A DNA stretch of 64,000 nt from an uncultured Gammaproteobacteria bacterium. GTDB taxonomy: Bacteria > Patescibacteriota > Microgenomatia > UBA8517. The stretch covers positions 13,833-77,832 of the forward strand of contig CAZGHY010000001.1 in the NCBI GenBank assembly GCA_964526015.1. Reading direction: 5' to 3'. The notes beneath the pieces were generated by a model. It saw only the letters and a program-made list of their open reading frames with translations. It ran no database searches and was not told where the DNA came from. Made by a program: the position numbers and the translations under genes. Below, piece after piece: positions 1,924 through 37,364 of this stretch (positions within the stretch are counted from its first letter, which is position 1; every line of letters begins with the position of its first letter).

Positions 1924-1938
1924 TTAATAAAACTACCA

Positions 1939-4900
1939 ATGAGTGATTTTACTTTAAAAGTACCTGTAACTGATGTAACATTTGACGTTACAATTCCATC
2001 TGGATCAATAGAGGCTGGTCCAACAGGTAGCATTGGTCCTCAGGGTCCAATAGGACCTCCAGGACCTCAAGGAGCGCCAGGACCACAAGGTGCTCAAGGT
2101 GCTACTGGACCACAAGGAATACAAGGTCCAACAGGAACTATAGGTCCTCAAGGTGTTCAAGGTCCAATGGGACCTCAGGGTACTCAAGGTATTCAAGGCG
2201 CTATGGGTCCACAAGGACCAGCAGGACCCATTGGAACTTTAGCAGGACCAACAGGATCGATAGGCTCAACAGGTCCACAAGGCCCAACAGGTTCAATAGG
2301 ACCAATTGGTCCCACAGGTATTCAAGGTGTAACTGGTCCTCAAGGCGAAACTGGCCCTCAAGGTATTCAAGGCATTCCAGGACCTACAGGCCCAACTGGT
2401 ATTCAAGGCGCCACAGGACCTCAAGGAAATACAGGTCCACAAGGTATTCAGGGTATACAAGGTGAAACTGGTATACAAGGTGTAACTGGACCTACAGGAC
2501 CCCAAGGTCCAACTGGAACAATTGGTCAAACAGGTATACAAGGTGTTACGGGCCCTACGGGCCCCCAAGGTGAAACTGGACCTCAAGGTATTCAAGGAAT
2601 ACAAGGTGTAACAGGTCCAACTGGTCCTATAGGTCCACAAGGAATCCAAGGACCAACAGGTACAATTGGTTCAACGGGCCCTACTGGTCCTCAAGGCGAA
2701 ACTGGCCCTCAAGGTATTCAAGGAATACAAGGTGAAACTGGTGTTCAAGGTCCTACAGGAACTATTGGGGCAACAGGACCACAAGGCATACAGGGTATAC
2801 AAGGAAATACAGGTCCAACAGGCGCTCAAGGACCTCAAGGTATTCAAGGTGTAACTGGACCTACAGGACCAATAGGGCCAACAGGAACTATAGGTCAAAC
2901 TGGTATTCAAGGCGTAACAGGTCCTCAAGGACCCACTGGTACTATTGGATCTACAGGTCCCCAAGGTATACAAGGTATTCAAGGAAATACAGGTCCTACA
3001 GGTCCTCAAGGACCAACAGGAACTATAGGTCCTCAAGGTCCAACTGGAACAATAGGTGCTACAGGACCTACAGGTCCCCAAGGTCCAACGGGCACAATAG
3101 GTGCTACTGGTCCTCAAGGAATACAAGGTCCAACTGGTACTATTGGACAAACTGGTATTCAAGGTGTTACTGGTCCACAAGGTCCTACAGGCACTATTGG
3201 TCCAACAGGCAGTATAGGTCCTCAAGGAATACAAGGTTCTACAGGTCCAACAGGACCAATGGGTCCCACTGGTACAATAGGTCCACAAGGTATACAAGGA
3301 AATACTGGCCCAACAGGTTCTCAAGGACAACAAGGTGTTACAGGTCCACAAGGTCCAACAGGACAAATTGGCCCTCAAGGTGTTACTGGTCCTCAAGGAA
3401 ATACAGGTGCTCAAGGAATACAAGGACCTCAAGGACCAACAGGTACTATTGGACCGCAAGGAATTCAAGGTTCTACAGGACCAACTGGTCCTCAAGGAAA
3501 TCAAGGAAATCAAGGATCCCCGGGAGTAACTGGTTCTCAAGGTGTTACAGGACCACAAGGTCCAACTGGATCAATAGGACCTCAAGGTCCAACGGGAACT
3601 TTGGGACCAACAGGCTCTATAGGTCCACAAGGACCAACTGGTACTATTGGTGCCACAGGACCCCAAGGTATTCAAGGACCCACTGGAACAATTGGGCCTC
3701 AAGGTATTCAAGGTTCCACTGGTCCAACTGGCCCTCAAGGCCCAACAGGTAGCATTGGTCCTCAAGGAATACAGGGAAATACAGGACCAACAGGACCACA
3801 GGGTAATATTGGACCTCAAGGTCCAACAGGCCCAGCTGGAATAAATGGTACAACAGGTGTTACTGGTCCACAAGGTCCTCAAGGGCCAACAGGAACTATA
3901 GGCCCTACAGGATCAATTGGTCCTCAAGGACCAACTGGAACGATTGGATCTACTGGTCCTCAAGGAATACAAGGTATTCAAGGTGTAACTGGTCCAACAG
4001 GACCTCAAGGAACTATAGGCCCTCAAGGCCCAACTGGTACTATTGGTTCTACTGGTAGTATTGGTCCACAAGGACCAACTGGATCTATAGGTCCTCAAGG
4101 AATACAAGGAAATACAGGACCTACAGGTCCTCAAGGCCTGCAAGGAATTCAAGGACCTACAGGAACTATTGGTCCAACTGGTCCTCAAGGTAATATTGGA
4201 CCTCAAGGACCAACAGGTCCTCAAGGATCTCCTGGCCCAACTGGTATTCAAGGTAGTACAGGTCCAGCTGGACCAACAGGCTCTATAGGCCCTCAAGGTA
4301 TACAAGGACCTACTGGCACTATTGGAGCTACTGGTCCGCAAGGAATACAAGGTATTCAAGGCGCTACTGGCCCAACAGGACCAATAGGTCCAACAGGACC
4401 ATTAGGTGGAGGCCCAACAGGACCAATAGGTCCAACGGGGCCAATGGGTCCAACTGGACCAGCGGGCACTTCAGCAAATGGTAATTTAATTACTGTAAAT
4501 CAGGTTGGACATGGATTTTCAAATGGTCAAGCTGTATATTTTAATGGGACAATTTGGGTATTAGCACAATCAAATGCTGCTGGTACACTTGGAATTGGTA
4601 TTATAAAAGTAACAGATGTTGATAATTTTGACGTTTACTTAGCTTCACAAATAATTGGATTATCTGGATTAACGGCTGGTCAATATTATTTCGTTTCTGA
4701 CTCTTCTGCGGGCGCTATCACTGCAACAGAACCAACAGCAACATCTAGCTTCTCTAATCCAATATTACTTGCATTATCAACTACAATTGGTATAGTTTTA
4801 CCATTTAGACCAAGTCAAATTGCTACATATCCAGTTGCAATTTATACAAAAACAGCTAATTATACAGCAATAGCTGGAGATACAGTATTGTGTAACTCTG

Positions 4901-5109
4901 CATCTGGTGGATTTACAGTTACATTACCAGCAGCATCGCTTAATACTATACTTTCTATTATAGTTAAAAAAATAAGCAATGACGCAAATATAATCACAAT
5001 TGACACCACTGGTGGTGATTTAATTGATGGATCATTAACATTAACATTTAATACACAATGGACAACAGTTCAAGTGCAATCAAATGGTAGCGCTTGGTAT
5101 ATAATATAA
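1939..5109 (+). CDS. Collagen-like triple-helix-repeat fibre protein with a globular C-terminal domain
   Basis: 1056-aa ORF. Gly falls at every third residue over about 819 residues ([15 protein letters not shown]). A non-collagen C-terminal domain of about 210 aa follows ([22 protein letters not shown]...). Confidence 0.95.
2017..4473 (+). repeat. Gly-X-Y coding repeat array of about 270 triplets, with higher-order units such as [10 protein letters not shown][VEN][14 protein letters not shown]
   Basis: Direct reading of the translation. Phase interruptions occur at 2242-2244 (extra Ala, GTL-A-GPT) and 4405-4413 (GGG). The 9-nt periodicity creates many spurious antisense and alternative-frame ORFs. 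Confidence 0.95.
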
Positions 5110-5121
5110 AGATTAAATGAC

Positions 5122-6378
5122 ATGACTTATTTTCCAAAAACACAAATAGTTCCGCAAGATGGCCCAAGCGTTGATGCATTTCATAGATTACGTGTATCAG
5201 ATAACGTAAGACAATTCTCAGCAATGTCTGAGTATTTAGATAATCCATTAATTTGGGAAAATGCTACATCTGGAGCAGGAACTGTTGTATATCAAGCAAA
5301 TCAATGTGCAGTTAGATTATCTACTGGTGGTACAACTAATGGTGCTTCAGCTATTAGGCAAACTCGTAGATACATGAGATATATGCCTGGGAAAAGTTTA
5401 GTAATATCTCAAACATTTGTAATGTCAGCTGCTCAATCAAGCGCTGTTGCTGAAATTGGTTATTATGATGGTGATAATAACGGAATTTTTCTTCAAAGAT
5501 CTGGAACAACAGTTAATTTTATATTAAGAAGTTTTACATCAGGTGCTGCAGTTGATACTACAATTGCTCAAGCATCTTGGAATTTAGATGAGATGGACGG
5601 AACTGGACCAAGTGGAGTTACATTAGATTTAACTAAGACTCAAATTTTAGTTATTGATTTACAATTTTTAGGGGTTGGTAGAGTTAGAGTTGGTTTTGAC
5701 TTAGGTGATAAAGGTATAGTTTATGTTCATCAGTTTCTAAACGCAAATATAAATACTGCTGCTTATATGTCTACAGCATGCTTGCCTATAAGAGGAAGAG
5801 TTTATAATATTGGAACGGCTGGCGGAACAGTTACTTTAGATATGATTTGTTCATCAGTTTCAAATGAAGGTGGTGTAGGCCCAGGACAAGATTCTGAAGG
5901 AATTATACAACTTAGCGCATCAAATGGTGCAACATTAAGGGCAACAAGTACTACTTTTATTCCAATTTTTTCAATTAGAGCGGCAACTAAAATTGGCGGA
6001 ACGGCAGCAGGCACTACAACAAATAGAGGTCAAATAATTCCGTGTAGTTCAAGCATGTATACTACAGCAGATTCATATTATGAAATTTGGTTAAATGCTA
6101 CTTTGACAGGGCCTTCATGGGTGGCGATGGGGTCTAATTCATTATGTGAATATGATGTTTCTGCCACAGTTCTTACAACTGGATCAGCATATAAAATAGA
6201 TTCTGGTTATTTATCAGCATTAAATAAATCAGAGCCAATTACATTAGAAAATTTTATTAATTTCCCATTAGTTTATACTGGATTAAATTCAAATCAAGAT
6301 ATATTAACAGTTTCAATAAGAACAATTTCTGGTGGTGGAACTGCTGGTGCTACAGTTGATTGGATTGAGAGGTATTAA
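5122..6378 (+). CDS. Beta-rich virion-associated protein of unknown function (paralogue 1)
   Basis: 418-aa ORF, Gly/Thr/Ser-rich. It shares blocks with the 6834-8288 product, e.g. EIGYYDGDNNGIFLQRSGTTVNFILRS versus EFGYF..EGTYFRYTSTGLTVAFNY. Confidence 0.6.
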   Translation: MTYFPKTQIVPQDGPSVDAFHRLRVSDNVRQFSAMSEYLDNPLIWENATSGAGTVVYQANQCAVRLSTGGTTNGASAIRQTRRYMRYMPGKSLVISQTFVMSAAQSSAVAEIGYYDGDNNGIFLQRSGTTVNFILRSFTSGAAVDTTIAQASWNLDEMDGTGPSGVTLDLTKTQILVIDLQFLGVGRVRVGFDLGDKGIVYVHQFLNANINTAAYMSTACLPIRGRVYNIGTAGGTVTLDMICSSVSNEGGVGPGQDSEGIIQLSASNGATLRATSTTFIPIFSIRAATKIGGTAAGTTTNRGQIIPCSSSMYTTADSYYEIWLNATLTGPSWVAMGSNSLCEYDVSATVLTTGSAYKIDSGYLSALNKSEPITLENFINFPLVYTGLNSNQDILTVSIRTISGGGTAGATVDWIERY

Positions 6379-6833: not shown

Positions 6834-8288
6834 ATGGCAGGTATTAGACTTGAAGGCAATATAACAGGAAATGTAGCAGAGGTAGATAATTTTAATAATT
6901 TACGTGTTTCATTACCATCTGGCATGAATCAAGCTGGATATGCTGTCATTCTTGGAGAAAACGATTCTGGATCTATACTTGGAAATCCAACACGTAGCTC
7001 TCCTAGAATTTCTGCAGATGATAGATTAGTTACTGGTTTTGACACTCCTATTTTTGATTATGATTTTACATCATTAACACAAGATACTGGTGTGTGGAGG
7101 CATTTGTTTACCACAATGACAGCAACTGCGTCAACAAATGGCGTTTTATTTAATGCAAACAGCACTTTAACAACTCTAACTGGTTGTTCATTACATTCTT
7201 TTAAACAGTTCGTTTTAATGGGAAATGCTGGCACATTATTAGAATTCTATTTAGCATTTACAGCATCACCATTAGCAAATCAAGTTTTTGAATTCGGATA
7301 TTTTTTACCTACAGTTGCACAAAACACCCCAATTGAAGGCACATATTTTAGATATACAAGTACAGGATTAACTGTAGCATTTAATTATGCTGGAACAGAA
7401 GTAGAGAGCGGAATATTACTAACACCATCTGATTTCAATAATGCAGAATCTTATTCATTTCAAATACGTTTAAATAATAGAGAAATTGCATTTTATAGAA
7501 ATGATATTAAAATTGGTTCATTAGTTATTAACAATGCGAATGGCATACCATATGCATCCAAAGCTTTACCAATTGCAATGCAATTTAGAAACTCAAATAC
7601 TGTAACTGGTGCTCCAGTTATGCAAGCTAAAGTACAGTCTGTTCACGTTGATCAACGTGATATTGCTTTAGATATGCCATTTGGACATAAACAAAATGCA
7701 ATGTATGGTGGTCAACAAGGTTGGCAAGGTGGATCAATGGGGTCCCTTGCTCTTTATACAAACAGCTTGGCCGTTGGTTCTGGAGCGGCATTATCAAATA
7801 CAGTTGCAACTGGCGTATTTACTGGTTTAGGTGGACAATTCTCAGTTACGCCTACATTAGCTGTAGGAACAGACGGTATATTGGCTAATTTTCAAGTACC
7901 AACTGGCTCAATAAATTTTAGGTCAAAAACATTAATAATAACTGGCGTTAGAATTCAAGGTGTTGTAACAACAGCATTAACTGGTGGACCAGTTATCTAT
8001 GCATATTCACTTGCATATGGACATACTGCAGTTTCTTTAGCAACTACAGAATCAACATCATTTGTAACAAATACTGCAAAAGCACCAAGACGTATTGCAT
8101 TAGGAACAGAGTCTTATGCCTCAGCTGCTGCTTTAGGAACACTTGGAGCTAGCGTTTCTATGTCATTCCAATCTCCAATTCCAGTTAATCCTGGAGAGTT
8201 TGTGTGTATAACTGCTAAAAATCTTGGAATAGTAACAACTGCTGGCGTAATTTCGTTGTTTGTTACTTATGATTATTACACCATTTAA
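6834..8288 (+). CDS. Beta-rich virion-associated protein of unknown function (paralogue 2)
   Basis: 484-aa ORF with AAGGA upstream of the ATG. Block similarity to the 5122-6378 product. Confidence 0.6.
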   Translation: MAGIRLEGNITGNVAEVDNFNNLRVSLPSGMNQAGYAVILGENDSGSILGNPTRSSPRISADDRLVTGFDTPIFDYDFTSLTQDTGVWRHLFTTMTATASTNGVLFNANSTLTTLTGCSLHSFKQFVLMGNAGTLLEFYLAFTASPLANQVFEFGYFLPTVAQNTPIEGTYFRYTSTGLTVAFNYAGTEVESGILLTPSDFNNAESYSFQIRLNNREIAFYRNDIKIGSLVINNANGIPYASKALPIAMQFRNSNTVTGAPVMQAKVQSVHVDQRDIALDMPFGHKQNAMYGGQQGWQGGSMGSLALYTNSLAVGSGAALSNTVATGVFTGLGGQFSVTPTLAVGTDGILANFQVPTGSINFRSKTLIITGVRIQGVVTTALTGGPVIYAYSLAYGHTAVSLATTESTSFVTNTAKAPRRIALGTESYASAAALGTLGASVSMSFQSPIPVNPGEFVCITAKNLGIVTTAGVISLFVTYDYYTI

Positions 8289-27100: not shown

Positions 27101-29608
27101 GTAATTCCATTAAAAAATACAGACTCTAGTTTAACTGTTCCAACGGTAGAATCTAGAATATTTACAGTTATAAATCCAAAAAACAGCCAAACATATTATT
27201 TAGAGTCTACAACTTTTAGCGAATTAGTAAATTTAAGAAAAGATTTAACACTATTATACTTGGTAATATCAAATGTTACTGGAACTGGCTTATCAACAGC
27301 CATTACAGTTACTACAAGAGATGTTCGTAAGTTTGGCAATGACCTAGACACTCAAGTTTCACAATCTTTAACTGATTCCCTTGCTGGTGGTGGATTTAAA
27401 AACTTTACCACTGTAAATAACTGGTTAAAATATAATCAAAACTATAATAACATCATTTTAGTTAGAGGAACTCACTCTATTTCTTCAGCATTAAGTCTTT
27501 CATATGCAAATAGAGAGGTTTTATTTGAAGGTGATGGCTATACTCAAATAAATGTTGACACCAATTTAACAATTGGAAGCAATGTTAGATTTAAAAACAT
27601 TAAGTTTAATCTAAATGGTAGTTTGTTTTTTGTTATTCAAGACAGCGATACAGTAAGTTTTGAAAACTGTGTATTTGAAGCCGCTTCAGTAACGCAAACT
27701 GGCATAGCTCTTGATAATGCAAACAATATTTCATTTAAAAACTGTAAATTTATTTACAAATATATTACAAACCCAAGTAGCAACTTGATTTCAAGTGGAG
27801 CTGGTTTAATTTACTCAAATGTTACAGCTTCTAGACTATTAAGCAACTTTAATATTAGAGATTGCAGCTTTACATACACGCCATCAACAGATGGCTATCA
27901 ACGTAATCCATTTGTAAATATAGAATTAAGTGAAGTAAGTGCATTTGTTAAAAATGTTGATATTTCAAATAATCAATTTATGAATAATGCCACTTCTGGT
28001 GGATTAATTATTGATTTGAAATCAGCGGTTGCTGTTGTTAATACAACAACTCCAAGCGTTACTACTTATAATAACAGACCGGCTTTAATTAACTTTAAAG
28101 TTAAAGATAACTGGTGTGATGCTAGACAAATAATTGCATTAACTTCTGTTACAAGTTCTTCTCAAGAAAAAAGCCCAGGTTTAAACTGTATCGATACAGA
28201 AATTTCTGGGAACAAATGTGGTGCCATCGCTTACTTTGTATCTAGAGGCGTTGGAAGTCTTGGATTAGTTTATGGACATGATGAAATGAACTCATCATTA
28301 ACCATAAAGCATAATTCTTGTCATTATATTTATAATTGTGATTCAACAGGACAACTATTCTTAGCTGATACCAATTCAGAATATGCTCAAGGCAATATTT
28401 TAATTGAAGGAAATCATTGTAATTGGATTCATATTTCTGCTTCAGGTGGAATACTTGAATCAATTAAGGTCAGCAAGAATTTCTTGAATGCTTATGATAC
28501 TACAGTTCTAGCTAATTATGGTGGAACAGCAGATTATGGCATTTACATCTATGCTAATTTGAATAGCAGCAAAGGCAGCAATTCAAATGTTATTGTAAGC
28601 GAAAACTCGCTTGAATATAATACTGTTAAAACAAGTGCTGGTGCAGTAACCACTTATACTTATGGTGTTGGCGGAATATTATTCTTAAGCTCAGGACAAA
28701 TATTAAATAACAAAATTACTGGCTTAATTAATAATTCAAGCACTACACATGGTATTAGATTTGGTGGAGTTTATACATTAATAAATGGGAACTCTATTTA
28801 TCGTCAATCAAGCAATATCTTTGCTTACATAAGATTCTCTCATCCTGACGGAACTACCACAAATCCTCAAGGGACTATAGTAAACAATTTATTTGATCAA
28901 TATACAACAGATGGTTCAAATGAACAAGTTTGTTTAGAAATTCCAGAAAACTTTACATATGAAAAGAATATAAATCAAACAAAGATTCAATTCTTAGATA
29001 TTGGTGAATCTGATGGATATTTAGATCCAAGTGCAGGATCTATTACTGGAGATACAACTTTATATAAAGGCGTGGGATATGATGTTTCTAGATCAAATTC
29101 AGCTACTGGAACATATGTAACTTTTGTAGACACTACAGATGTTAAAAAAGCTTTTAGAAAATATTATAATTTAAGTAATATTTTACCAAAAAATGTACAA
29201 GTTCTTGATGGTTATTTAGGGTTTAATGCATTAAGCAGCACAGATGGTGATTATACTAATGCATTTAATATTTTTTATATGGAAATAAGAAAAGGAAGAC
29301 TTGGTTTAGGTACATATTCAATTGGATCTAATCCATATGGTGTTCCACCTAGTTCAACTAGCATTTTAGATGTTAAAACTAATTCAATTAGTGATGGATC
29401 TGTAAATGATACTTCTCAAATAACTGTAGCTATTCCAGGAATAGCTACATATTATAATAATACTAATTATTTGTTTGTTAAACCTTCATCAAACAAATAT
29501 TATACAGACACAGAACAACCAATAATGCTTAATTTAAGCATCGGTTTTAGGGGAACTAATGCTCAATGGCAAGTTTCTCCAATAAGAATTAAATATCGTT
29601 GGGTTTAA
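24122..29608 (+). CDS. Giant tail fibre/tailspike protein with an internal beta-helix module, candidate receptor-binding protein
   Basis: 1828-aa ORF. Cap-like motif ILVRGTHSISSALSLSYANREVLFEGDGYTQINVD at about 27460, followed by repetitive NxxFxNC/ISxN beta-helix-like rungs. Confidence 0.6.
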   Translation: MSNFPTELDTDVELPLVTNNIVEIGAEAINALRDATFNIEENIGIDAQGSKNSIAERLETFLEPDGTPKTSVLVSLGLIALPIRDNQIAADAAIQESKITLTYSTQALYDLITALDSAITVVNGFISTVGIKVNPHIAGTDYRHKLSHIDIDTGTAYLNKNGLSRTTTNLNTLLSDINTDLVTHEKNDGTTTGTVPSANFAHVASGIEVNTSNFTTIPQIYDNAQDILEYLDNSNLFTVGNRFQNLFSNGIPRTSRLSTLTSDGYGQNLVPVTPVTSYLLAGGVTSPKDDIFNGDDVIEFFPADNSTNIFDSQFCTVKPGDILTINYGTVTVQFIIDNIKQITSPTISKRYLVRINGKNLLATTAGIARIDRALYNENKYGVLNTSVVNNSFNSYPSVIAANPRGAVALGIGFDPTKIDSTHYNLYLQLFPDGNPSNKTINLPAIDISGNAGATPGKYSLESIVEETNKKIHTAGFNLRFVAFSYNGEFGMMLADHYQNASFAIMSGIINSSGTYDSGLTASTYPNNVVDPITSQDALGFGDNGANLASPPYAISFSTTEKALVPTKIFVPLSRNYFYVNGVERDKLNFHTSQVLDTYGDGYWAASIISRTLTSSTVEATYQVSALLDNTKLASGKTLVVLPNVAVTDSSYNPIDYGRFIIKSVVFDPCCSPGTPTTTITVYDAIHGAGASPYASSASGTVRLYFNDDSIGVDNQNITDGYVATNFKRYHEFYVDQDGSTFSHEKLRFYTISGGTSTPVQLYCDNGEISKINIVSGSSKLKGYKFANNFSKLTLHISNYSDTTGLYDGYLCRYDGSVYSNSGPITSGRKGDVVRFYDETTVDFIDFKFNIDDSIASFTNKNLDIQVFKPIDTEGQQMRIGSGQLNDFTKEFKFSQDKRTFGNTSEKNLTTSALDFINAGEKYLHQNSVMRGFDYVSTSSNKISLTGGLAVVDGKFISSNNNYVDIPIVRELYSSVEYVNIIWAICINNKSELQVIPLKNTDSSLTVPTVESRIFTVINPKNSQTYYLESTTFSELVNLRKDLTLLYLVISNVTGTGLSTAITVTTRDVRKFGNDLDTQVSQSLTDSLAGGGFKNFTTVNNWLKYNQNYNNIILVRGTHSISSALSLSYANREVLFEGDGYTQINVDTNLTIGSNVRFKNIKFNLNGSLFFVIQDSDTVSFENCVFEAASVTQTGIALDNANNISFKNCKFIYKYITNPSSNLISSGAGLIYSNVTASRLLSNFNIRDCSFTYTPSTDGYQRNPFVNIELSEVSAFVKNVDISNNQFMNNATSGGLIIDLKSAVAVVNTTTPSVTTYNNRPALINFKVKDNWCDARQIIALTSVTSSSQEKSPGLNCIDTEISGNKCGAIAYFVSRGVGSLGLVYGHDEMNSSLTIKHNSCHYIYNCDSTGQLFLADTNSEYAQGNILIEGNHCNWIHISASGGILESIKVSKNFLNAYDTTVLANYGGTADYGIYIYANLNSSKGSNSNVIVSENSLEYNTVKTSAGAVTTYTYGVGGILFLSSGQILNNKITGLINNSSTTHGIRFGGVYTLINGNSIYRQSSNIFAYIRFSHPDGTTTNPQGTIVNNLFDQYTTDGSNEQVCLEIPENFTYEKNINQTKIQFLDIGESDGYLDPSAGSITGDTTLYKGVGYDVSRSNSATGTYVTFVDTTDVKKAFRKYYNLSNILPKNVQVLDGYLGFNALSSTDGDYTNAFNIFYMEIRKGRLGLGTYSIGSNPYGVPPSSTSILDVKTNSISDGSVNDTSQITVAIPGIATYYNNTNYLFVKPSSNKYYTDTEQPIMLNLSIGFRGTNAQWQVSPIRIKYRWV

Positions 29609-30171
29609 TAGAATTTACATTTATCTTTGCCCCATGTTGAGGCAAAAGCGTCGCATTTTAATTTACCTAATGTTGTTGTTGGCATACCAGGCTCAGGTGG
29701 AGCGTCTTTATCTACAACAAAAAATACATCCATATGATTACAACCATCATCACAAATACATTTATGGGCTGGTGTAACTGGAATTTTACTACAATGATCT
29801 TCTGAAACTGCAACAGTTTTTTTAATTGTATAGTAGTTATCAAGAAATCCACAATTTCCATCATAAATTGCTGATGCTGGATTACCTTTCATATTTAAAC
29901 AAGCATAATCATCTTGTTTAGAGCAAGAATATTTACTTCCACATACATCAATTTCTTTAGTGTCCACAGGCGTATCACTGACATCATTAGAATCAGCTAC
30001 ATTTGAGTCTTTAACGCCAAAATCTTTTACCTCTGAATCATTTGAAATTTCGCTTCCTGATTCTACTGCTTCATTTCCAGTATCCTCAGGTGGCGGAGGC
30101 GCAACTTGAAAATCAGTTCCTGAGCAAGCAGTTAGAGTTAAAAATACACAAATTGTAATTAAGTTTTTCAT
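29605..30171 (-). CDS. Secreted lipoprotein with an acidic linker and a 10-Cys C-terminal domain, a moron and candidate superinfection-exclusion factor
   Basis: Signal peptide MKNLITICVFLTLTAC with lipobox L-T-A-C. Asp/Ser/Glu-rich linker. Ten Cys in the last approximately 115 aa. Convergent with the fibre gene, overlapping its stop. Confidence 0.75.
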   Translation of the reverse strand: MKNLITICVFLTLTACSGTDFQVAPPPPEDTGNEAVESGSEISNDSEVKDFGVKDSNVADSNDVSDTPVDTKEIDVCGSKYSCSKQDDYACLNMKGNPASAIYDGNCGFLDNYYTIKKTVAVSEDHCSKIPVTPAHKCICDDGCNHMDVFFVVDKDAPPEPGMPTTTLGKLKCDAFASTWGKDKCKFY

Positions 30172-30181
30172 TGTTTTTCCT

Positions 30182-30592
30182 TTATTTCATTGTTAACAGA
30201 AGTTTTTGTAATTTATTTTTGTCAAAAGACACACTATCTTGCGGGAATTCTTTTTTATTTTGTATAAAAATTCTTATTTGGTTTTCATTTTTTATTTTAT
30301 AATTATTAATTATATAATTATTATATACTCCAAATGAATGATTGTATGGAACGTCATATGAGTCTATAATTAATATTAATTCAATTATTACTGGATTAGA
30401 AATATTATCATTAATATGAGTTACTTTTTTTATTTTGTAATCAATTAAATCTGTAATTTTAATTTTATGATTATAATTATTTGGGTTATTAATAAGTTCA
30501 AAAATAGCAGGCAAATCTCCATAAAAATCATTATTAAAATAATGAATAATCTCATCTTCTACTGTTTTAAGATTTCGTTCCATGTTTTCCAT
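30182..30592 (-). CDS. Asn/Ile/Lys-rich orphan protein in an extremely AT-rich gene
   Basis: ORF track 30182-30661. I prefer the ATG at 30590-30592 (MENMERNLKTV..). The GTG-initiated extension would run through the promoter and the GC hairpin. It ends 10 nt upstream of the lipoprotein gene start. Confidence 0.55.
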   Translation of the reverse strand: MENMERNLKTVEDEIIHYFNNDFYGDLPAIFELINNPNNYNHKIKITDLIDYKIKKVTHINDNISNPVIIELILIIDSYDVPYNHSFGVYNNYIINNYKIKNENQIRIFIQNKKEFPQDSVSFDKNKLQKLLLTMK

Positions 30593-30628
30593 CTTGTCTT
30601 TTTTATTTTCGGAGACCGCATTCCTACC

Positions 30629-30650
30629 GCGCACGCTCGCGCGCGTGTGT
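30629..30650. other. GC-rich hairpin inside a 40-nt 70% G+C patch: leader stem-loop, operator, or IS-end hairpin
   Basis: CACGC (30632-30636) pairs with GCGTG (30643-30647) across loop TCGCGC. The stem can be extended by G-T, C-G and G-T pairs. In 30611-30650, 28 of 40 bases are G or C, within an AT-rich genome. Confidence 0.5.
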
Positions 30651-30679
30651 ATAATAGGCACTCAATTTTTCCGTGTCAA
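30651..30679 (-). promoter_or_regulatory. Near-consensus sigma70-type promoter driving the minus-strand two-gene moron
   Basis: The minus strand reads TTGACA (plus 30674-30679), a 17-nt spacer, then TATTAT (plus 30651-30656). An A-tract lies just upstream (plus 30688-30695). Confidence 0.55.
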
Positions 30680-30802
30680 CTCCCCATCAATTTTTGCATT
30701 TTCGAGCATCTTACTGTTTTTTTTGGATGATCTGCTGATCAGCCTTACAATTTTTGTGGTGGTAATCAATAAACAAGTATTTTACTATACAAGATTAAAA
30801 AA

Positions 30803-31825
30803 ATGTCTGATAGCATTCTAGTAGTTAAAATTAAACATCATGCCGATCTAACCGAAGAGTTAAAAAAAGCTGTTTTGGTAGCTAACTATGCTGTTAAAAA
30901 TAGATCTAAACTCTCTTCAACTAATGTTTCTCATATTGGACTACCATCTGCAATTAGCAATCAAGTGCTTCGTAAATATGGCAAGAATAAGAAATGTAAG
31001 TCAATTAATGAGGAAAAGATTAAGTTAGTAGCACCAAATCAATCAGTTAAAATTGATGGCAATCAAATTAGAATAGTTCCATTAAAACTAATGCTAACTA
31101 ATGAAAGCAAGCATCAGATAACTAAAGTATATCAGATAGAATTAGATGCAACTTATGCTTATATAGCATTTAGCAAATCTAATACAAAACAATTAGATAC
31201 TAATAAATTCATTGGTGTTGATCTAAATGCCACTTCTCATTGTGCAGTAGCTGCTGAACCTATTAGTGGTAAAGTTATTAAACTTGGTAAGCAAGCTCCA
31301 CATATACATAAGAAGTATAAGGCATTAAGAAATAGTTTGCAGAAGCAGAGATTATATAAGAAGTTGAAAGAAACTAAAGGAAAAGAAACCAGAAAAGTAA
31401 AGGATATCAATCATAAAATTAGCAAACAAATTGTTCAGTTTGCTAAAGATAACAACTGCGGTATTAAGTTAGAAAAACTAACTGGTATTCGTAATAATAA
31501 GAAAAACAACAAAACATTTCGTTATACCTTGAACTCTTGGAGTTATTATCAATTAGGCACTATGATCGCCTATAAAGCTCTACTTGCAGGTATTCCAATA
31601 CAATATATTGATCCAGCCTACACCAGTCAGAACTGTAGTAGATGTGGTCATCTTGGAAAACGTAATGGTAAAAAATTTAAGTGTGCAAATTGTAATCACA
31701 CTGGTCATGCCGATGTCAATGCGAGTTTTAATATCGCAAAGTCATTGAACCTGATCTCTGCTACCGAGAAAAAGATCGGTGGTAATGGTGATACTGAAGC
31801 GCCTATGAGGCAATCAAATGCTTGA
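30803..31825 (+). CDS. tnpB: TnpB (IS200/IS605-IS607 OrfB-type RNA-guided endonuclease), compact 340-aa form with an intact catalytic triad
   Basis: RuvC-I is D140 in FIGVDLNAT (31220-31222). RuvC-II is E224 in GIKLEKLTG (31472-31474). RuvC-III is D304 in GHADVNASFNIA (31712-31714). The zinc ribbon CSRC-x12-CANC lies at 31634-31693. The motif PAYTSQNCSRCG is also present. Confidence 0.9.
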   Translation: MSDSILVVKIKHHADLTEELKKAVLVANYAVKNRSKLSSTNVSHIGLPSAISNQVLRKYGKNKKCKSINEEKIKLVAPNQSVKIDGNQIRIVPLKLMLTNESKHQITKVYQIELDATYAYIAFSKSNTKQLDTNKFIGVDLNATSHCAVAAEPISGKVIKLGKQAPHIHKKYKALRNSLQKQRLYKKLKETKGKETRKVKDINHKISKQIVQFAKDNNCGIKLEKLTGIRNNKKNNKTFRYTLNSWSYYQLGTMIAYKALLAGIPIQYIDPAYTSQNCSRCGHLGKRNGKKFKCANCNHTGHADVNASFNIAKSLNLISATEKKIGGNGDTEAPMRQSNA

Positions 31826-31883
31826 AGAAAAACTTTTGAACCTCGGAACCTCTAATGCTTTAACTTGGAGTTATTCAGTATAG
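31640..31883 (+). ncRNA. Predicted omega/reRNA region overlapping the tnpB 3' end and downstream spacer
   Basis: The location follows the known TnpB system layout. Local stems: TGCGA/TCGCA (31720-31738), CTACCGA/TCGGTGG (31761-31782), and nested AAGC-GCCT-atg-AGGC-..-GCTT (31797-31823). TTGAACCT is repeated at 31745-31752 and 31836-31843. Confidence 0.25.
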
Positions 31884-32729
31884 ATGGTCACTAACAATTT
31901 TTTCAGATCCGAATTATATAATAGTCATCATATTGTTCAAAATGGCATGATTTCTTATCCAAAAGAAGTTATTATTAGAACATTACGAGATTTTTTCAAA
32001 GATGATAATTATTATCGTTATGTTCCAGATGATTGGGGATTTCCAAAACGAGTTGATGTTACCGGATTAAATATAGACGCCGGAATACCAAATGACAGCT
32101 CAACCACTAGATTATTTATTGGTGAAGCCTTTAGTACGGACGTTTCTTTTTATCCAGCTATAATTGTAAGATTTACAGGATCTAAATATAAACCAATTTC
32201 TTTTAATAGAGAAAGATCAAACGTTCAATGGGATTATTATGCTGTAGATCTTGATGGCTATCAAGTAAAACATTTTAGATATCCTAAATATTTTTTATTT
32301 GCTGGAAGTTGGTCTGGAACTATTCAAATTGATATTATGTCAAGAGGTCAAAGGGCAAGAGATGAGCTTACAGAACTTATTGGTATGTTATTTTCAGATA
32401 TCGCACATGATTCTTTAATAAAAAGCGGTATAAGTATTATGGATGTATCTGTATCTAATATTAGTCAAGATTCAGATAGAAATGATCTAATACATAAAGC
32501 TTCTGTTAATTTAGAAATAAGATCTGAGTGGCGAAGACAAATACCTGTAGGTAATATAGTAGAAGTTATTAATTTTGCAATAGAAATTGGTAGAACAGAT
32601 GATCCAAATTATCCAATTTCACCAAATATGACAATTTACACTCAAAATTCTGTAATTACATCATTTATAAATGCCGTTTATCCTTATGATCCCGAAAATA
32701 TTCAATTTAATTTTAATTCGGGACTGTAA
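31884..32729 (+). CDS. Putative tail completion / tail terminator (neck-proximal) protein
   Basis: 281-aa ORF immediately upstream of the sheath gene. The assignment rests mainly on position. Confidence 0.35.
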   Translation: MVTNNFFRSELYNSHHIVQNGMISYPKEVIIRTLRDFFKDDNYYRYVPDDWGFPKRVDVTGLNIDAGIPNDSSTTRLFIGEAFSTDVSFYPAIIVRFTGSKYKPISFNRERSNVQWDYYAVDLDGYQVKHFRYPKYFLFAGSWSGTIQIDIMSRGQRARDELTELIGMLFSDIAHDSLIKSGISIMDVSVSNISQDSDRNDLIHKASVNLEIRSEWRRQIPVGNIVEVINFAIEIGRTDDPNYPISPNMTIYTQNSVITSFINAVYPYDPENIQFNFNSGL

Positions 32730-32742
32730 AGTATGGAAATAT

Positions 32743-32770
32743 TTGCTATCTGTATAGAGCGTAATATAAT
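32743..32770 (+). promoter_or_regulatory. Candidate sigma70-like promoter upstream of the sheath gene
   Basis: TTGCTA (32743-32748), a 16-nt spacer, then TATAAT (32765-32770), 70 nt upstream of the ATG at 32840. The AT-rich background makes chance matches likely. Confidence 0.3.
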
Positions 32771-32839
32771 ATTTTCTGCTTTTTGTTTAACAAAAGCTAA
32801 TAAAAACTTATCTTATAAGAAAATAGGAAACTAAAATAA

Positions 32840-35620
32840 ATGAGTCCAAATATCCCAGGAGCTGGAAATGTTTTACCAGGAATTTTTACAAGCGTAGAGA
32901 CCCTATCTAGGGGTGCCAGTATACCTCAAGGAATTAGAGTTCCTGCAATAATTGGTTTAGGTGAACGCCCTGAAACAATCGTTGCCTCTGCTCTTGGAAA
33001 TGGTGCTGATGGCCTAAATTCATCATACTCTTCAACTATTGGTGCGGATGGAAGACATTTCTTACTTTCTCTTGCTCCAATTATCCAAGGAAGAACAACT
33101 CTTTATAAAAACAATATCCCATTAACTGGTTTAGAAGCTGCTATCACCTCAGGTTCATTTTCAAATCTATATGATTATAGAGTTGATCCAGATACTGGCA
33201 AAATTGAATTACAAACCTCAAGATTAGTTGATTTAGGTGGATCATTCTATACTGCTGGCGTAACAAATGTTGGCCAAGGAACCATTTCAAATCTTGTATT
33301 ATCAAGCACAAATGCTCCAACCGAAACTTGGACAATTAAATGTATTGATGTAGCTAAAGATTCTGGCGGAAGCCCAATTGCTGGAACTGCTAAATTCTTA
33401 GCCTTTGGATCTGTATCTGGAAACGTTCTAGATGGTTATGGCAATCCAGTTCTTTGGATGGCTAATAGCACACTTAATACCAATGGTATTTTAACTTTCT
33501 CTATTGGTGAAACTGGTTATCCTTCATCAACCTCACCATTTAGACCAGGCGACTCATTCACCGTCAAAGTTTATGGTGGCGTATTAAAACAAGGTGATAC
33601 ATTAACCGCTACTTATATAGCTGAATCAGATATTAATTCACCAATAACAATAAACAACATGAATGACGCCCAATTAAATCACGGCGTTGTTTCCGCTGAC
33701 AATACACTATCTCTTGGCTGTCAATTAGCTTTCTCAAATCAAGCTCCAGCTGTAATTACACTTCAAGTCCCACCTCCATTACCACGTAGACAATCATTTG
33801 ATTTGTTTGACATTAATGCCACATCTACAGATGGTTATGAGTTCATTCTACCATTACCTCCTGGAATTACACCAGATATTAATAGTGATATTCATTTCTT
33901 TGTAACTGATCCAACAACTGGTGTAGAAACTCAATTAGTACCAAATAAATATGATTTCTATACAATAGATACGGTTGGCAATCCAACTTCTTCACAATTT
34001 ATATTTAGCGATACAAACCCACCTTCTGGATATGCATATAGTTACTCAGTAGTTTCAAAAGCTTCAGTAATTAACTATCAAATTGATGGCTATATCAATG
34101 CTAGCCAAACTGTATCAGATACTTGTACATTCTCAAGTACATCAATTACTTTTACAAGTGATTATGTTGGTAAACAAATTCGTATAGAAGACCCAGCTAA
34201 TGCAATTAATGCAGGAACCTTTGATATTACTGGAGTATCTGGTGGCGCGCTAACAGTTGAAACTAATGCAAGCCCTCCATTTGCTGATTTTACCAATGGA
34301 TCTTCAGTGGCTTTTAGAGTTATTAATACTCTAGATGGAACTGTAGTTGCCAGTACAACTGGAGCTGATGGTGTATTAACTGCAATTGGTGGTTCTGCTA
34401 CAGCAACATTTACCTCAGCTGGTATAAACTTTAACTTAGTTTCAGGTCCAACAATTATCAATAATGCTTATAGACTTGAAATTACTGCTGGAGCAAATAA
34501 AGGTAAATATCGTATTACCAATTATAGCTCAGGCCCAAATGAACTTACAATTGCTAAAACATTCTTAAGTGAAGCAGATGTCAAGTTTGAAGTAATTGAT
34601 TCATCTGAAAATAGCAACTTTATCGTTATAAATCATAATATAGTTCCAAATAACAATACTTTAAGAGTTACATTGGTAACAGATAAAGATGCACTATTCT
34701 ATGATGCTGGTTGGGTTACTGCTCTAGAAACTTTAGAAACTGTTGAGTGTGATATCGTAGTTCCACTACCAAATAACATGTTCTCGGCTGTTTTTCAAAA
34801 TACTTTAGCTCATTGTAGAGTTATGAGTAATATTCGTAATAAAAAAGAACGTGTATTATTCACTGGCGCTATCAGTGGATTAACTCCAGACAACTTAATT
34901 GGTAATTCAACTGCCGCTGTTGAAGATGTTGGTATCTTAGAAGGAATTCAAGGAGATTCAATTGCTGAAATTCTTGCAGGTAATACAGAAGATATTACTA
35001 ATTACAAAATTTCTGATAACTTTGGAGATACATTCCGTTGTGTATACTTCTGGCCAGATGAGATAATTACTCAGGTTGGCACAAGTAATGCAACTATCGA
35101 TGGTTTCTATATTGCTGCCGCGGCTGCTGGCTGGTGTGCCTCACAACCAAACATTGCGGTTCCACTAACCAATAAAGTATTGGCTGGATTCACAATATCA
35201 AATACAAAGAAACTTGCGCCAAATACACTATCAGATCTAGCGTTTGCTGGAGCTACAGTATTACAACCAGTTGCTGGTGGTGGCAAAGTTATCTGGGGAC
35301 GTACAACTACAAATTCAGGATTCGCTGAAGAAGAAGAAATCTCTATCGTGTTTATTCGTGATAGAATTGCCAAATCTTTACGTACCGGATTTGAAGGATT
35401 TATTGGTATACCAGAAGACGATAATACACAAAATGCATTATCAGGAAGAGCCAACTCACTATTTACCTCATTCATTTCACAAAAACTTATCACAGACTTC
35501 CGTGATATTATCGTGAAACGTGATGATGTAGATCCTCGTCAATGGAATATAGTCGCAAGAGTACAGCCAGTATATCCTGTAAATTATATTTACATTAAAG
35601 TTTCAATTGGCCTACTATAA
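32840..35620 (+). CDS. Contractile tail sheath protein, large form with insertion domains
   Basis: 926 aa. N-terminus NIPGAGNVLPGIFTSVE... The C-terminal block ISIVFIRDRIAKSLR..FIGIP....IVARVQPVYPVNYIYIKV is typical of sheath C-terminal domains. It is followed by a tube gene. Confidence 0.75.
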   Translation: MSPNIPGAGNVLPGIFTSVETLSRGASIPQGIRVPAIIGLGERPETIVASALGNGADGLNSSYSSTIGADGRHFLLSLAPIIQGRTTLYKNNIPLTGLEAAITSGSFSNLYDYRVDPDTGKIELQTSRLVDLGGSFYTAGVTNVGQGTISNLVLSSTNAPTETWTIKCIDVAKDSGGSPIAGTAKFLAFGSVSGNVLDGYGNPVLWMANSTLNTNGILTFSIGETGYPSSTSPFRPGDSFTVKVYGGVLKQGDTLTATYIAESDINSPITINNMNDAQLNHGVVSADNTLSLGCQLAFSNQAPAVITLQVPPPLPRRQSFDLFDINATSTDGYEFILPLPPGITPDINSDIHFFVTDPTTGVETQLVPNKYDFYTIDTVGNPTSSQFIFSDTNPPSGYAYSYSVVSKASVINYQIDGYINASQTVSDTCTFSSTSITFTSDYVGKQIRIEDPANAINAGTFDITGVSGGALTVETNASPPFADFTNGSSVAFRVINTLDGTVVASTTGADGVLTAIGGSATATFTSAGINFNLVSGPTIINNAYRLEITAGANKGKYRITNYSSGPNELTIAKTFLSEADVKFEVIDSSENSNFIVINHNIVPNNNTLRVTLVTDKDALFYDAGWVTALETLETVECDIVVPLPNNMFSAVFQNTLAHCRVMSNIRNKKERVLFTGAISGLTPDNLIGNSTAAVEDVGILEGIQGDSIAEILAGNTEDITNYKISDNFGDTFRCVYFWPDEIITQVGTSNATIDGFYIAAAAAGWCASQPNIAVPLTNKVLAGFTISNTKKLAPNTLSDLAFAGATVLQPVAGGGKVIWGRTTTNSGFAEEEEISIVFIRDRIAKSLRTGFEGFIGIPEDDNTQNALSGRANSLFTSFISQKLITDFRDIIVKRDDVDPRQWNIVARVQPVYPVNYIYIKVSIGLL

Positions 35621-37023: not shown

Positions 37024-37364
37024 TAAACGAGCCAGAACACCGTTTCAAATGGTATCTGGCTAAATATTTAAAGTGTCTTCCTGACTCAGAGCAATTAAAT
37101 GAATTAAATCCAATATTAAAATATTGGATGTATTCAAATTGGATTGAAGATCAAAAGGAAGAATATGAGTTGTTAAAACAACATGGAATTCTTGTTGGCT
37201 CATTCACAAATCCAGAAGCGGCCAAACAAATGCTATCTGATGATAAATACTCTTCTACAGATGAAGAATTTGAATCAACTTGGAAGAAAATTAAGGCATA
37301 TAATGAGCAAGATATTGATAATAATACCTTAATGCCTACTAAAAAAAGAAGAGTTATTAAATAA
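36331..37364 (+). CDS. Tail assembly chaperone, -1 frameshifted long form (gpGT-like, about 344 aa)
   Basis: Frame 3 is open from 37020 to the TAA at 37362-37364. I checked it codon by codon (..KK-IINEPEHRFKWYLAKYLKCLPDSEQLNELNPILKYWMYSNW..). ORF 37128-37364 is the tail of this frame. Confidence 0.6.
37014..37020 (+). other. Programmed -1 ribosomal frameshift slippery heptamer A_AAA_AAA
   Basis: The zero-frame codons read TTA AAA AAA TAA. Seven A residues lie immediately before the stop, and the -1 frame continues to the tape-measure gene start. Confidence 0.6.

Follow-up and report, generated by a model that had tools for sequence, protein, structure and literature searches.

The moron concept is due to Hendrix, and T-even phages carry seg and mob, free-standing homing-endonuclease genes placed between conserved late genes. 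In T1-like phages, the gene for Cor, a receptor-blocking lipoprotein, lies next to the receptor-binding protein gene. Phage T5 has llp adjoining the gene for pb5, and Llp blocks FhuA (PMC9586334). TnpB, according to two studies, cleaves vacant sites, with the result that the transposon is retained (PMC10690162, PMC10705468); in this model it is a homing nuclease that serves transposon retention.

The DNA analysed here, referred to as the window, is a stretch of 64,000 nt from contig CAZGHY010000001.1 (GenBank GCA_964526015.1, positions 13,833–77,832, forward strand). Its source is labelled an uncultured Gammaproteobacteria bacterium, with the GTDB lineage Bacteria; Patescibacteriota; Microgenomatia; UBA8517. 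The bin holding this phage contig represents a small bacterial genome, in which the contig may have been misplaced. In segment 29605–31883 (2.3 kb) of the window, between a fibre-like gene and the tail genes, an uncultured large phage has an accessory region restricted to its lineage (Table 1). We consider that two unrelated parts of different ages, a lipoprotein moron and a stranded TnpB, probably entered the junction between the fibre-like gene and the 281-aa gene (p281).

Table 1. Positions of the features in and around the island, numbered from the first letter of the window.
Feature	Position	Strand	Description
Fibre-like virion gene, 1828 aa	24122–29608	+	homologues in ~60 related phage contigs
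Hypervariable block	28950–29900		last ~220 fibre codons and C-terminal ~92 lipoprotein codons; single swapped tract
Lipoprotein gene, 188 aa	29605–30171	-	signal peptide, lipobox LTAC, acidic proline-started linker, C-domain with 10 conserved Cys
Small ORF, 136 aa	30182–30592	-	Asn/Ile/Lys-rich; AT-rich; 10 nt upstream of lipoprotein gene
Second swapped patch	30229–30407	-	middle of the 136-aa ORF; two allele types (alignments)
Control region, near-invariant	30606–30716		promoter-like site and GC-rich hairpin placed in the would-be 5' UTR
IS200/IS605 remnant	30786–31878	+	tnpB and right end; left limit approximate (blastn, alignments against L006–L010)
tnpB, 340 aa	30803–31825	+	RuvC D140/E224/D304 and zinc finger C278/C281/C294/C297 intact
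Omega-RNA scaffold (predicted)	31699–31878	+	overlaps tnpB 3' end, ends at the right end; 5' limit approximate
Predicted guide match	31879–31895	+	starts immediately past the right end; 5 nt plus the opening 12 nt of p281
281-aa gene (p281)	31884–32729	+	conserved virion-module gene; right border of the island; 71 homologues found

The initial annotation had placed all coding from 20241 to 64000 on the plus strand save in the island, and this was borne out: the only minus-strand ORFs that were not shadows were 29605–30171 and 30182–30661, and the remaining ones of at least 90 aa lay inside the sheath ORF or a 696-aa ORF. The strong composition swings it described were equally evident. GC content fell to 16% in the 300-nt interval at 30251, the minimum of the 64 kb (300-nt intervals; mean 31.6%, sd 5.2), and stood at 38% in the adjacent spacer; the small ORF is the lowest-GC part of the window. 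That ORF was first listed as 159 aa from GTG 30661, but its conserved start is ATG 30592. The claim that the island holds the window's largest non-coding stretch proved wrong, as the spacer measures 141 nt (210 nt if the small gene begins at ATG 30592, the start indicated by relatives) versus 340 nt at 37024–37363, where the sole ORFs are minus-strand (47 and 85 aa). The same region also encodes a holin-like protein and an M23 peptidase.

We then ran the synteny comparison with related phages that the initial annotation had proposed. In distant relatives (40–54% amino-acid identity), the gene order p117 - fibre - p281 - sheath - p204 - p230 was kept in ~78–80 loci. By tblastn synteny the lipoprotein and small ORF were found in none of these, and TnpB appeared only in L082, as a distant version at a different junction. 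All three island genes were absent from every one of the ~54–56 distinct loci with a visible fibre end; the fibre/p281 gap was at most 20 nt in 28 of them, and the other loci held diverse other ORFs. Because distant relatives lack all three genes, and half of them have abutting flanks, the island is accessory and not family core. Among close relatives, none of the three genes was missing or displaced, either in the two IMG/VR contigs or in the contigs of four public runs. L002 and L003 were collinear with the window across the whole island, and the lipoprotein gene, small ORF, tnpB and p281 were linked by contigs of 4 runs (4 studies). No empty-site variant was found among these IMG/VR and public-run contigs. 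Thus the case taken to speak against an insertion, three genes fixed in all relatives with no empty site, is in part true within the lineage and fails across the family. The island marks a genuine insertion hotspot, though of a rather ordinary kind. The proposal of a hotspot between host-range and tail genes therefore stands as regards a variable insertion site, whereas 'host-range' is a reading of the size, position and variable C-terminus of the 1828-aa gene. That gene lay upstream of the 281-aa gene in every one of the ~60 contigs with a homologue (tblastn). Its identity as a host-recognition or fibre protein is putative because the product had no match in Pfam, PHROG or PDB.

The description of tnpB as solo was upheld by matches to PF07282 (E 1e-22) and phrog_506 (E 2e-35) and by the lack of any tnpA, or remnant of one, in the 64-kb window. 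The protein also matched solved Cas12f/TnpB chains (E 1e-20 to 1e-23), and its RuvC-like D-E-D triad with a zinc-ribbon insertion is that of the OrfB_IS605 / Cas12f-like TNB family. The bin's sole TnpA lies on contig C55, beside an unrelated 462-aa TnpB. Homology with other elements was restricted to ~30786–31878, starting ~17 nt before the tnpB ATG. The right end, ...GTTATTCAG, is sharp and common to elements in unrelated contexts; its hairpin contains a T-G pair and a C-A mismatch, and comparison with L006–L010 revealed no left-end hairpin at the window element. L008 and L010 contained full elements that encode a Y1 TnpA and whose left and right hairpins match. From these a series of tnpA decay runs through L009 (internally deleted) and L006 (last 23 codons) to the window (none). 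We read the window's TnpB as a 5'-truncated IS200/IS605 remnant that has lost its left end and tnpA, and because both are gone, neither excision nor a natural empty site is expected. The left end was preceded on its 5' side by TTTAC in two elements (L008, L010) and by TTAC in L006, the two insertion contexts being too few to define a TAM; TTTAC also occurs at 30781–30785 in the window, where L002 and L003 have TTTAA. Relatives of this TnpB (76–83% amino-acid identity) were found in five other phage contigs, all lacking the lipoprotein and small ORF. In these searches, the compact 340-aa clade was confined to viral contigs, and its nearest cellular relatives (~50% identity) were mostly archaeal.

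Covariation provided well-supported grounds for predicting a structured omega-RNA over the 3' end of tnpB. The RNAalifold consensus contained 42 pairs, 14 of them with compensatory changes, and 94.8% of cells were paired compared with 85.5% in shuffles (0/500 as high); slid controls gave 1–4 pairs with compensatory changes. There was no match to an Rfam family. In TnpB elements, the guide is by established rule the sequence directly following the right end. The corresponding 17 letters here occur once in the window and reach into p281, in which conservation starts at the first Met.

Divergence between relatives differed sharply along the locus. Synonymous divergence (dS) was 0.070 in tnpB versus 0.25–0.33 in the fibre body, p281 and sheath, that is, 3–4 times below the flanks, and it rose to 0.7–0.9 in the fibre tip and lipoprotein C-domain. 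In codons 1–240 of tnpB, pS was 0.081 compared with 0.242 in p281 (Fisher p 9e-5). GC3 was 0.235 in tnpB against 0.13–0.18 in neighbouring genes, and omega was 0.25 against 0.05 in structural genes, which suggests relaxed constraint on tnpB. The initial annotation had offered two histories, one in which TnpB carried the cargo and one in which cargo and tnpB arrived independently. The restricted homology, the cargo-free TnpB relatives and the contrasting divergence favour independent arrival; because the two parts differ in history, TnpB did not carry the cargo.

The hypervariable block was 54–84% identical to L002 and 33–59% to L003 on a background of 92–99%. L002 and L003 are near-identical to each other elsewhere but ~50% different in the block, and a Logan contig had 983 other letters in place of 28980–29945. 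Fibre-tip and lipoprotein C-domain alleles were never separated (three classes, ~7 genomes), and the right edge of the swapped tract coincides with the linker/domain boundary within the lipoprotein gene. On these alignments, phages that are almost the same elsewhere have swapped tip and C-domain in one piece. Since the two 3' ends abut, this co-variation may be simple physical linkage.

The lipoprotein itself is rare, with only four variants in large protein collections. Its lipobox (MKNLITICVFLTLTAC) was read from sequence, and the Cys is kept in 4/4 family members. The N-terminal half is conserved and the C-terminal half variable in alignments. A 32%-identical family member nevertheless retains both the scaffold of 10 Cys and the DTKEID-C-SKYS motif at the junction, so the C-domain is under structural constraint. 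Permissive searches of Pfam, PHROG, PADLOC and PDB sequences gave no match, and AF2 models were unusable (pLDDT 37 and 40), the lipoprotein model being too poor for a fold search. A spanin pair was rejected, as the 136-aa partner has no membrane segment and the lipoprotein no C-terminal anchor (no hydrophobic stretch was long enough).

Homologues of the small ORF numbered only seven, all at least 70% identical. A contig from run X5, 99% identical elsewhere, had 159 other letters in place of 30229–30407. Upstream, the 111-nt block 30606–30716 showed one difference from relatives whose backbone differs by 6–7%. It contains the top sigma-70-like match of 29300–32900, TTGACA-17-TATTAT on the minus strand (30679–30651, 11/12; -35 at 30679–30674, -10 at 30656–30651). 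Sites scoring 11/12 were not enriched in the window (8 seen vs 6.5 in shuffles), so the case for a promoter rests on position and conservation rather than score. The suggestion that the minus-strand pair has its own promoter is thus supported by a conserved, well-placed site, although the score alone is not distinctive. The sole terminator-like hairpin (29449–29425), the island's only candidate for a moron terminator, falls inside the variable fibre tip, where relatives have indels.

These features allow comparison with the systems described above. Like phage morons, the island is a candidate extra transcription unit of deviant composition between genes that adjoin in relatives, and it is missing where they do. 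Like llp beside the pb5 gene, the lipoprotein gene stands directly beside a gene presumed to act in host recognition, with a putative expression signal of its own, and the likeness in geometry extends, at the level of genes, to a variable part that changes with the neighbour's variable tip. The lipoprotein shows no sequence similarity to Llp or Cor, nor to any family or solved chain. Its mature form of ~172 aa is roughly three times the size of Llp (~60 aa) and includes both a long acidic linker and a domain with 10 Cys. Its gene also differs from llp in being preceded by a 136-aa cytoplasmic ORF and in being convergent with its neighbour, its stop overlapping by 2 nt that of an 1828-aa fibre-like gene rather than adjoining a compact tip protein gene. 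The TnpB part resembles IS200/IS605 elements with TnpB and omega-RNA (IS608 / ISDra2 type) in its RuvC triad and zinc finger, in its predicted structured RNA from the tnpB 3' end to the right end, in the guide position in flanking DNA, and in having full relatives that encode Y1 TnpA and carry similar hairpins at the left and right ends. It departs from them in lacking tnpA and the entire left end, in encoding a short TnpB (340 aa) of a viral clade, and in its viral location, where only 5 nt separate it from the start codon of a virion gene that is conserved. A neighbouring junction in other family members holds HNH, LAGLIDADG and TnpB genes, a setting like that of T-even seg and mob, but the island's nuclease is of the RNA-guided and not the protein-guided kind.

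The account that we favour would proceed as follows. A fibre/p281 junction that is tight in the wider family (stop 0–20 nt from the p281 start) would have received both parts. The minus-strand part (29605 to ~30716) would be a self-contained moron comprising promoter-like site, 136-aa cytoplasmic ORF and lipoprotein, and the hypervariable tract would encode a disulfide-rich outer lipoprotein domain together with the convergent fibre tip. Exported in the infected cell, the lipoprotein would mask or alter the structure recognised by the tip, so that superinfecting kin are excluded and progeny are spared binding to debris, as with T5 Llp for pb5/FhuA. An exclusion or defence role for the lipoprotein, the type of cargo that the initial annotation expected in such islands, is plausible from geometry and co-variation; masking or alteration of the tip's receptor in particular, argued from geometry, is a tentative reading that we place somewhat below even. 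The plus-strand part (~30786–31878) would be a decayed IS200/IS605 end, unable to transpose and maintained as a selfish nuclease guided by an RNA that matches the element's own right flank. After the sub-lineages split, TnpB would have passed between them, through plain recombination or because the nuclease drove its own copying into an empty site. A more speculative extension, which we think improbable, is that TnpB and its omega-RNA still act as an RNA-guided 'marker-exclusion' nuclease when phages co-infect a cell, cutting TnpB-free kin at the fibre/p281 junction so that repair copies the element in and the neighbouring tip-lipoprotein cassette spreads.

Other readings of the island as a whole fared poorly. 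An ancestral core of the phage family would account for the same arrangement in all close relatives, but it is scarcely credible when 0/78 more distant loci have any of the three genes here and half have abutting flanks. It is also very improbable that the three genes form one composite IS200/IS605-type transposon with the lipoprotein pair as passengers of TnpB. They are always together in close relatives, and all occupy one gap whose flanking genes adjoin each other in other phages. Nonetheless, homology to the five TnpB elements stops just upstream of tnpB and none carries cargo; there is neither left-end hairpin nor tnpA near 29605; and cargo and tnpB are ~4- to 12-fold apart in dS. Because the lipoprotein stop overlaps the fibre stop, there is moreover no room for a transposon end.

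More weight attaches to rival readings of the separate parts. The lipoprotein pair could be a generic moron acting on the host surface, in lysis or otherwise, independently of the fibre receptor, with a C-domain that hitch-hikes or drifts beside a selected tip. The contiguity of the variable segments, which lets one crossover pair swap both, is in keeping with this, as are a C-domain omega of ~1 against L003 (compatible with weak constraint), the lack of similarity to any exclusion protein, and the holin-like and M23 peptidase genes nearby. Structural constraint on the C-domain and the coincidence of the swap edge with a domain boundary tell against it, and lysis as a spanin pair fails; on balance we regard a receptor-independent role as unlikely, if far from negligible. 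For tnpB, the alternative is an inert relic whose low divergence reflects recent ordinary recombination or the constraint of the overlapping RNA. It has lost its left end and tnpA, close relatives show no empty site, its omega is five times the value found for its neighbours, and its 3' 350 nt are the most conserved part (1.4% difference). On the other hand, the ORF is intact in all variants seen, from runs of several studies; D140, E224, D304 and the four zinc Cys are invariant in the alignment; low pS extends outside the RNA-coding part; and compensatory changes preserve pairing in the helices of the omega-RNA. An inert relic thus seems to us a doubtful though serious possibility, and the chance that the nuclease is still active falls only a little short of even.

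The island findings do not overturn current understanding. They offer a case of remodelling of the presumed host-recognition end in a large uncultured phage, in which one junction gathers a lipoprotein cassette and a selfish nuclease, and the decay series from full element through truncated tnpA to none documents the stranding of TnpB nucleases in phage genomes. A marker-exclusion TnpB, if real, would give an uncultured large-phage clade an RNA-guided equivalent of the T-even free-standing homing endonucleases. If the lipoprotein does mask a receptor, it would provide a handle on the receptor and the host of a clade with no cultured member.

The segment between the fibre-like ORF and p281, a conserved 281-aa virion-module gene, proved to be a true accessory island, set in an insertion hotspot found across the phage family. 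ORF calls (Table) bore out the strand switch inside the co-directional block that the initial annotation had described, together with its solo tnpB, its promoter-like minus-strand site and its composition swings, the small ORF having 16% GC against a mean of 31.6%, the minimum of the 64 kb. A start for the small ORF at GTG 30661 was rejected, as relatives indicate the ATG. The lipoprotein opens with a lipoprotein signal (…LTLTAC), which an acidic linker joins to a C-half rich in Cys. Two earlier statements were not confirmed: the island spacer is not the largest non-coding stretch of the window, being exceeded by the 340 nt without a convincing ORF at 37024-37363, and a host-range role of the fibre found no homology support in Pfam, PHROG and PDB searches. 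The window copy of p281 carries a 17-aa C-terminal extension (32679-32729) relative to some 70 homologues, which are about 263 aa long. The 48 nt just left of the tnpB homology (30739-30786) recurred with 2 mismatches in other contigs from three public runs, where the flanks continue a minus-strand open reading frame; this stretch is perhaps a relic of a further gene at the site.

Table. Features of the island and its flanks, and insertions at the p281/sheath junction of relatives
Feature	Sequence	Position	Strand	Remarks
Fibre-like ORF, 1828 aa	window	end 29608	+	ORF call
Lipoprotein ORF, 188 aa	window	29605-30171	-	stop 2 nt inside fibre stop
Small ORF, 136 aa	window	ATG at 30592	-	10 nt upstream of lipoprotein gene; start per relatives
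Promoter-like site	window	spacer upstream of small ORF	-	TTGACA-17-TATTAT; 11/12, best of the region
tnpB	window	30803-31825	+	ORF call; followed by 58 nt, then p281
p281, 281 aa	window	from 31884	+	conserved
Tail sheath	window	32840-35620		PF17482, phrog_2839
HNH endonuclease	L020	8808-9698		p281/sheath junction
HNH endonuclease	L090	1932-2927		p281/sheath junction
LAGLIDADG endonuclease	L070	6287-6967		p281/sheath junction
Distant TnpB, then GmrSD_C-like ORF	L082	9246-11394		p281/sheath junction
448-aa ORF	L002	10958-12304		p281/sheath junction; no Pfam, PHROG or PADLOC match

The contig is phage-like: besides a tail sheath it carries an M23-peptidase/endolysin-like gene, and its virion genes are long and co-directional. 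The window covers bases 13833-77832 of this 145-kb contig, the largest of bin G000 (1.23 Mb, 221 contigs). Both rpoB and rpoC of the bin are of bacterial type, which settles its domain, and genome size among its family relatives is 0.8-1.1 Mb; neither rRNA nor the ribosomal-protein markers L28 and L31e were found in it. Mis-binning, or a host with a small genome, may account for the presence of the phage contig in the bin. Scanning the whole window for Rfam families and tRNAs gave no match, nor did blastn of 29000-33000 against phage GenBank records. The bin holds a single copy of the tnpB region. The search for the island elsewhere in host-side genomes came up empty when the lipoprotein profile was run against a sample of 400 genomes from the phylum of the bin. 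Another contig of the bin (C55, about 1471-5580) holds a separate IS605-like pair of a Y1 TnpA and a 462-aa TnpB, the latter distant from the phage TnpB and similar to it in the zinc-finger region alone.

Homologues of p281 numbered 71, many of them on contigs of 100-470 kb, and a profile built from these retrieved 80 IMG/VR loci. Comparison by tblastn with eleven window proteins revealed a single conserved gene order (p117, fibre, p281, sheath, p204, p230). Dereplication at 98% left 56 distinct loci with a visible fibre end; the fibre-p281 gap was at most 20 nt in 28/56, 21-400 nt in 6/56 and larger in 22/56. The proposed insertion hotspot was thus supported, the gap being tight in 28 loci and variously occupied elsewhere. 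The lipoprotein, small ORF and TnpB were absent from all occupied gaps except those of the two close relatives, and the ORFs in the other occupied gaps were mainly plus-strand and without a family match.

Only two close IMG/VR contigs were found, at 92% nucleotide identity (L002/L015 and L003/L069), both with all three island genes in place. In all, 20 public runs from 11 studies, sampling wastewater, sludge and fresh water, contained the stretch or the best-conserved portion of it, with no RNA datasets among the runs listed. In the four runs examined, contigs bridged the lipoprotein gene, small ORF, tnpB and p281, and none of these contigs, which lose rare variants, joined across tnpB. Likewise, no empty-site variant was seen among the close relatives (two IMG/VR contigs plus four runs), which represent just a few independent lineages. 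The same arrangement therefore extends to the close relatives, but not to the distant ones, which lack the three genes at this junction.

A sliding comparison and per-gene Nei-Gojobori estimates against the close relatives separated three regimes of divergence. The backbone (fibre body, p281, sheath) had dS of 0.25-0.33 and omega of about 0.05. A hypervariable tract at about 28950-29900, comprising the last ~220 fibre codons and the last ~92 lipoprotein codons, had dS of 0.7-0.9 and dN up to 0.5-0.8; omega for the lipoprotein C-domain was about 1 in the comparison with L003. For tnpB, dS was 0.070 and omega 0.25. L002 and L003 were nearly identical in the backbone; about half of their positions differed in the hypervariable tract, and so did about half of those in another patch, which lies within the small ORF. 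In a contig of one public run (X9), 28980-29945 was replaced by 983 other letters, and a contig of another (X5) was 99% identical to the window, yet carried another allele of 30229-30407. These patterns indicated that the small-ORF patch assorts independently of the tip/lipoprotein tract. A diversity-generating retroelement seemed an unlikely source of the variable tip, the tract being ~950 nt long with indels and spanning two genes.

Codons 1-240 of tnpB had a pS of 0.081, compared with 0.242 in p281 (Fisher p 9e-5), indicating that the synonymous deficit is not due to overlapping RNA alone. Third-position GC was 0.235 in tnpB versus 0.13-0.18 in its neighbours. The 86 nt leading from the control region to tnpB showed 12.8% divergence, at or above the backbone; thus, the low-divergence block coincides with tnpB and the element's right end. 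By these comparisons, the island falls into two parts that differ in history. The earlier idea that TnpB carried the cargo was not sustained, because tnpB relatives lie in unrelated contexts and the two parts follow different divergence regimes.

Those tnpB relatives (76-83% aa identity) came from five further viral contigs, where their neighbours include a Baseplate_J gene, a GIY-YIG gene and sugar-nucleotide genes. All elements share a sharp right end, …GTTATTCAG (window position 31878), beyond which they diverge. The full element, in L008 and L010, is 1.6 kb long, has a Y1 TnpA and is preceded by TTTAC; its left hairpin reads CCAACCAC-TTCA-GTGGTTGG, and the right one resembles it. L009 retains tnpA with an internal deletion, and L006 has only its last 23 codons; in the window, where no tnpA is recognisable, element homology begins ~17 nt before the tnpB ATG. 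Aligned in this order, the loci form a decay series that ends in a stranded tnpB. The six phage TnpB copies (76-96% identity) formed one well-supported clade on a long branch in a quick unrooted tree. The nearest cellular relatives (loci L095-L174, ~50% aa identity) are mostly archaeal, from methanogens, Asgard, Nitrososphaerota and DPANN, with a few bacterial bins interspersed. L008 also holds, at 7537-7631 on the minus strand and 1.5 kb from its full element, a solo right end/omega-RNA copy with no tnpB beside it, the upstream part of which is nearer to the window's right end (91%) than to that of the neighbouring element.

The resident TnpB retains residues D140, E224 and D304 and the four zinc-finger Cys, and matches solved Cas12f/TnpB chains. 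Over the final ~180 nt up to the right end, a fold of 42 pairs is conserved, 14 of them with compensatory changes, versus 1-4 compensatory pairs in slid controls; 94.8% of cells in this predicted omega-RNA (TnpB guide RNA) region were paired, compared with 85.5% in shuffles. In TnpB elements, the guide is the DNA immediately past the right end. The predicted guide here is presumably 31879-31895, which takes in 5 nt of spacer and the opening 12 nt of p281. Its target is unique in the window, and because the resident copy is preceded by …TTCAG rather than by TTTAC, the putative target-adjacent motif found to the left of full elements, self-cutting is not expected. The only additional exact guide match in IMG/VR was dismissed as chance, being a GC-rich unrelated site without the motif. 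The first 9 nt of the guide, TATAGATGG, are identical to the three codons (Tyr-Arg-Trp) that precede the fibre stop in about ten empty-site relatives, and 20/22 nt across the right end (31870-31898 region) match the fibre end of locus L021. We give this likeness little weight, as it may be a relic of an old junction or chance.

Searches of two very large protein collections placed the lipoprotein in a family of four variants. Lipobox, linker, ten Cys and the motif DTKEID-C-SKYS are common to all four, which differ greatly in the C-half. One homologue, P0082, had 32% identity, and its locus was sought in IMG/VR and not found. The lipoprotein profile matched a single metagenome contig (2.4 kb, of L002 type). 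For the small ORF, seven homologues were found; all are close, and mid-ORF they fall into two allele types. Neither protein matched Pfam, PHROGs, PADLOC or solved chains, the ESM Atlas gave no usable match, and AF2 models were unusable (pLDDT 37 for the lipoprotein and 40 for the small ORF). We rejected derivation of the lipoprotein body from the fibre tip (BLASTP E > 2, no long inverted repeat) and also a spanin pair, since the partner ORF has no membrane segment.

In phage T5, llp lies beside pb5, and its lipoprotein blocks the receptor FhuA (PMC9586334). The gene studied here adjoins a fibre-like gene in the same manner, and the disulfide-rich domain of its product, predicted to be exported, is swapped along with the adjacent fibre-like tip. 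The gene pair has a putative promoter of its own and is absent from distant relatives. This geometry and co-exchange led us to favour, tentatively, receptor masking or superinfection exclusion as the possible role of the lipoprotein. The chief alternative, which we regard as somewhat less likely, is a moron whose function is unrelated and whose variable end merely rides with the fibre tip.

The insertion would also bear on transcription of the tail genes. In relatives, the fibre and p281 are probably almost translationally coupled. In the window, convergent transcription from the lipoprotein pair would enter the fibre 3' end, and the tail genes downstream would need a new transcription start, for which tnpB read-through, a site in 30717-30802 or one in 32743-32770 are candidates. 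The element's right end also provides a GGAG, placed 13 nt upstream of the ATG of p281.

The p281/sheath junction was likewise variable among relatives (Table). Compared with L002 and with a contig of run X6, both of which have a 448-aa ORF between p281 and sheath, the 110-nt p281/sheath spacer of the window (32730-32839) is an empty site. Variability at both junctions marks the virion block as a family-wide landing zone in which many of the inserts are selfish nucleases. The parts of the present island are of known kinds: a moron with Llp-like geometry, and a decayed IS200/IS605 element with a live-looking TnpB.
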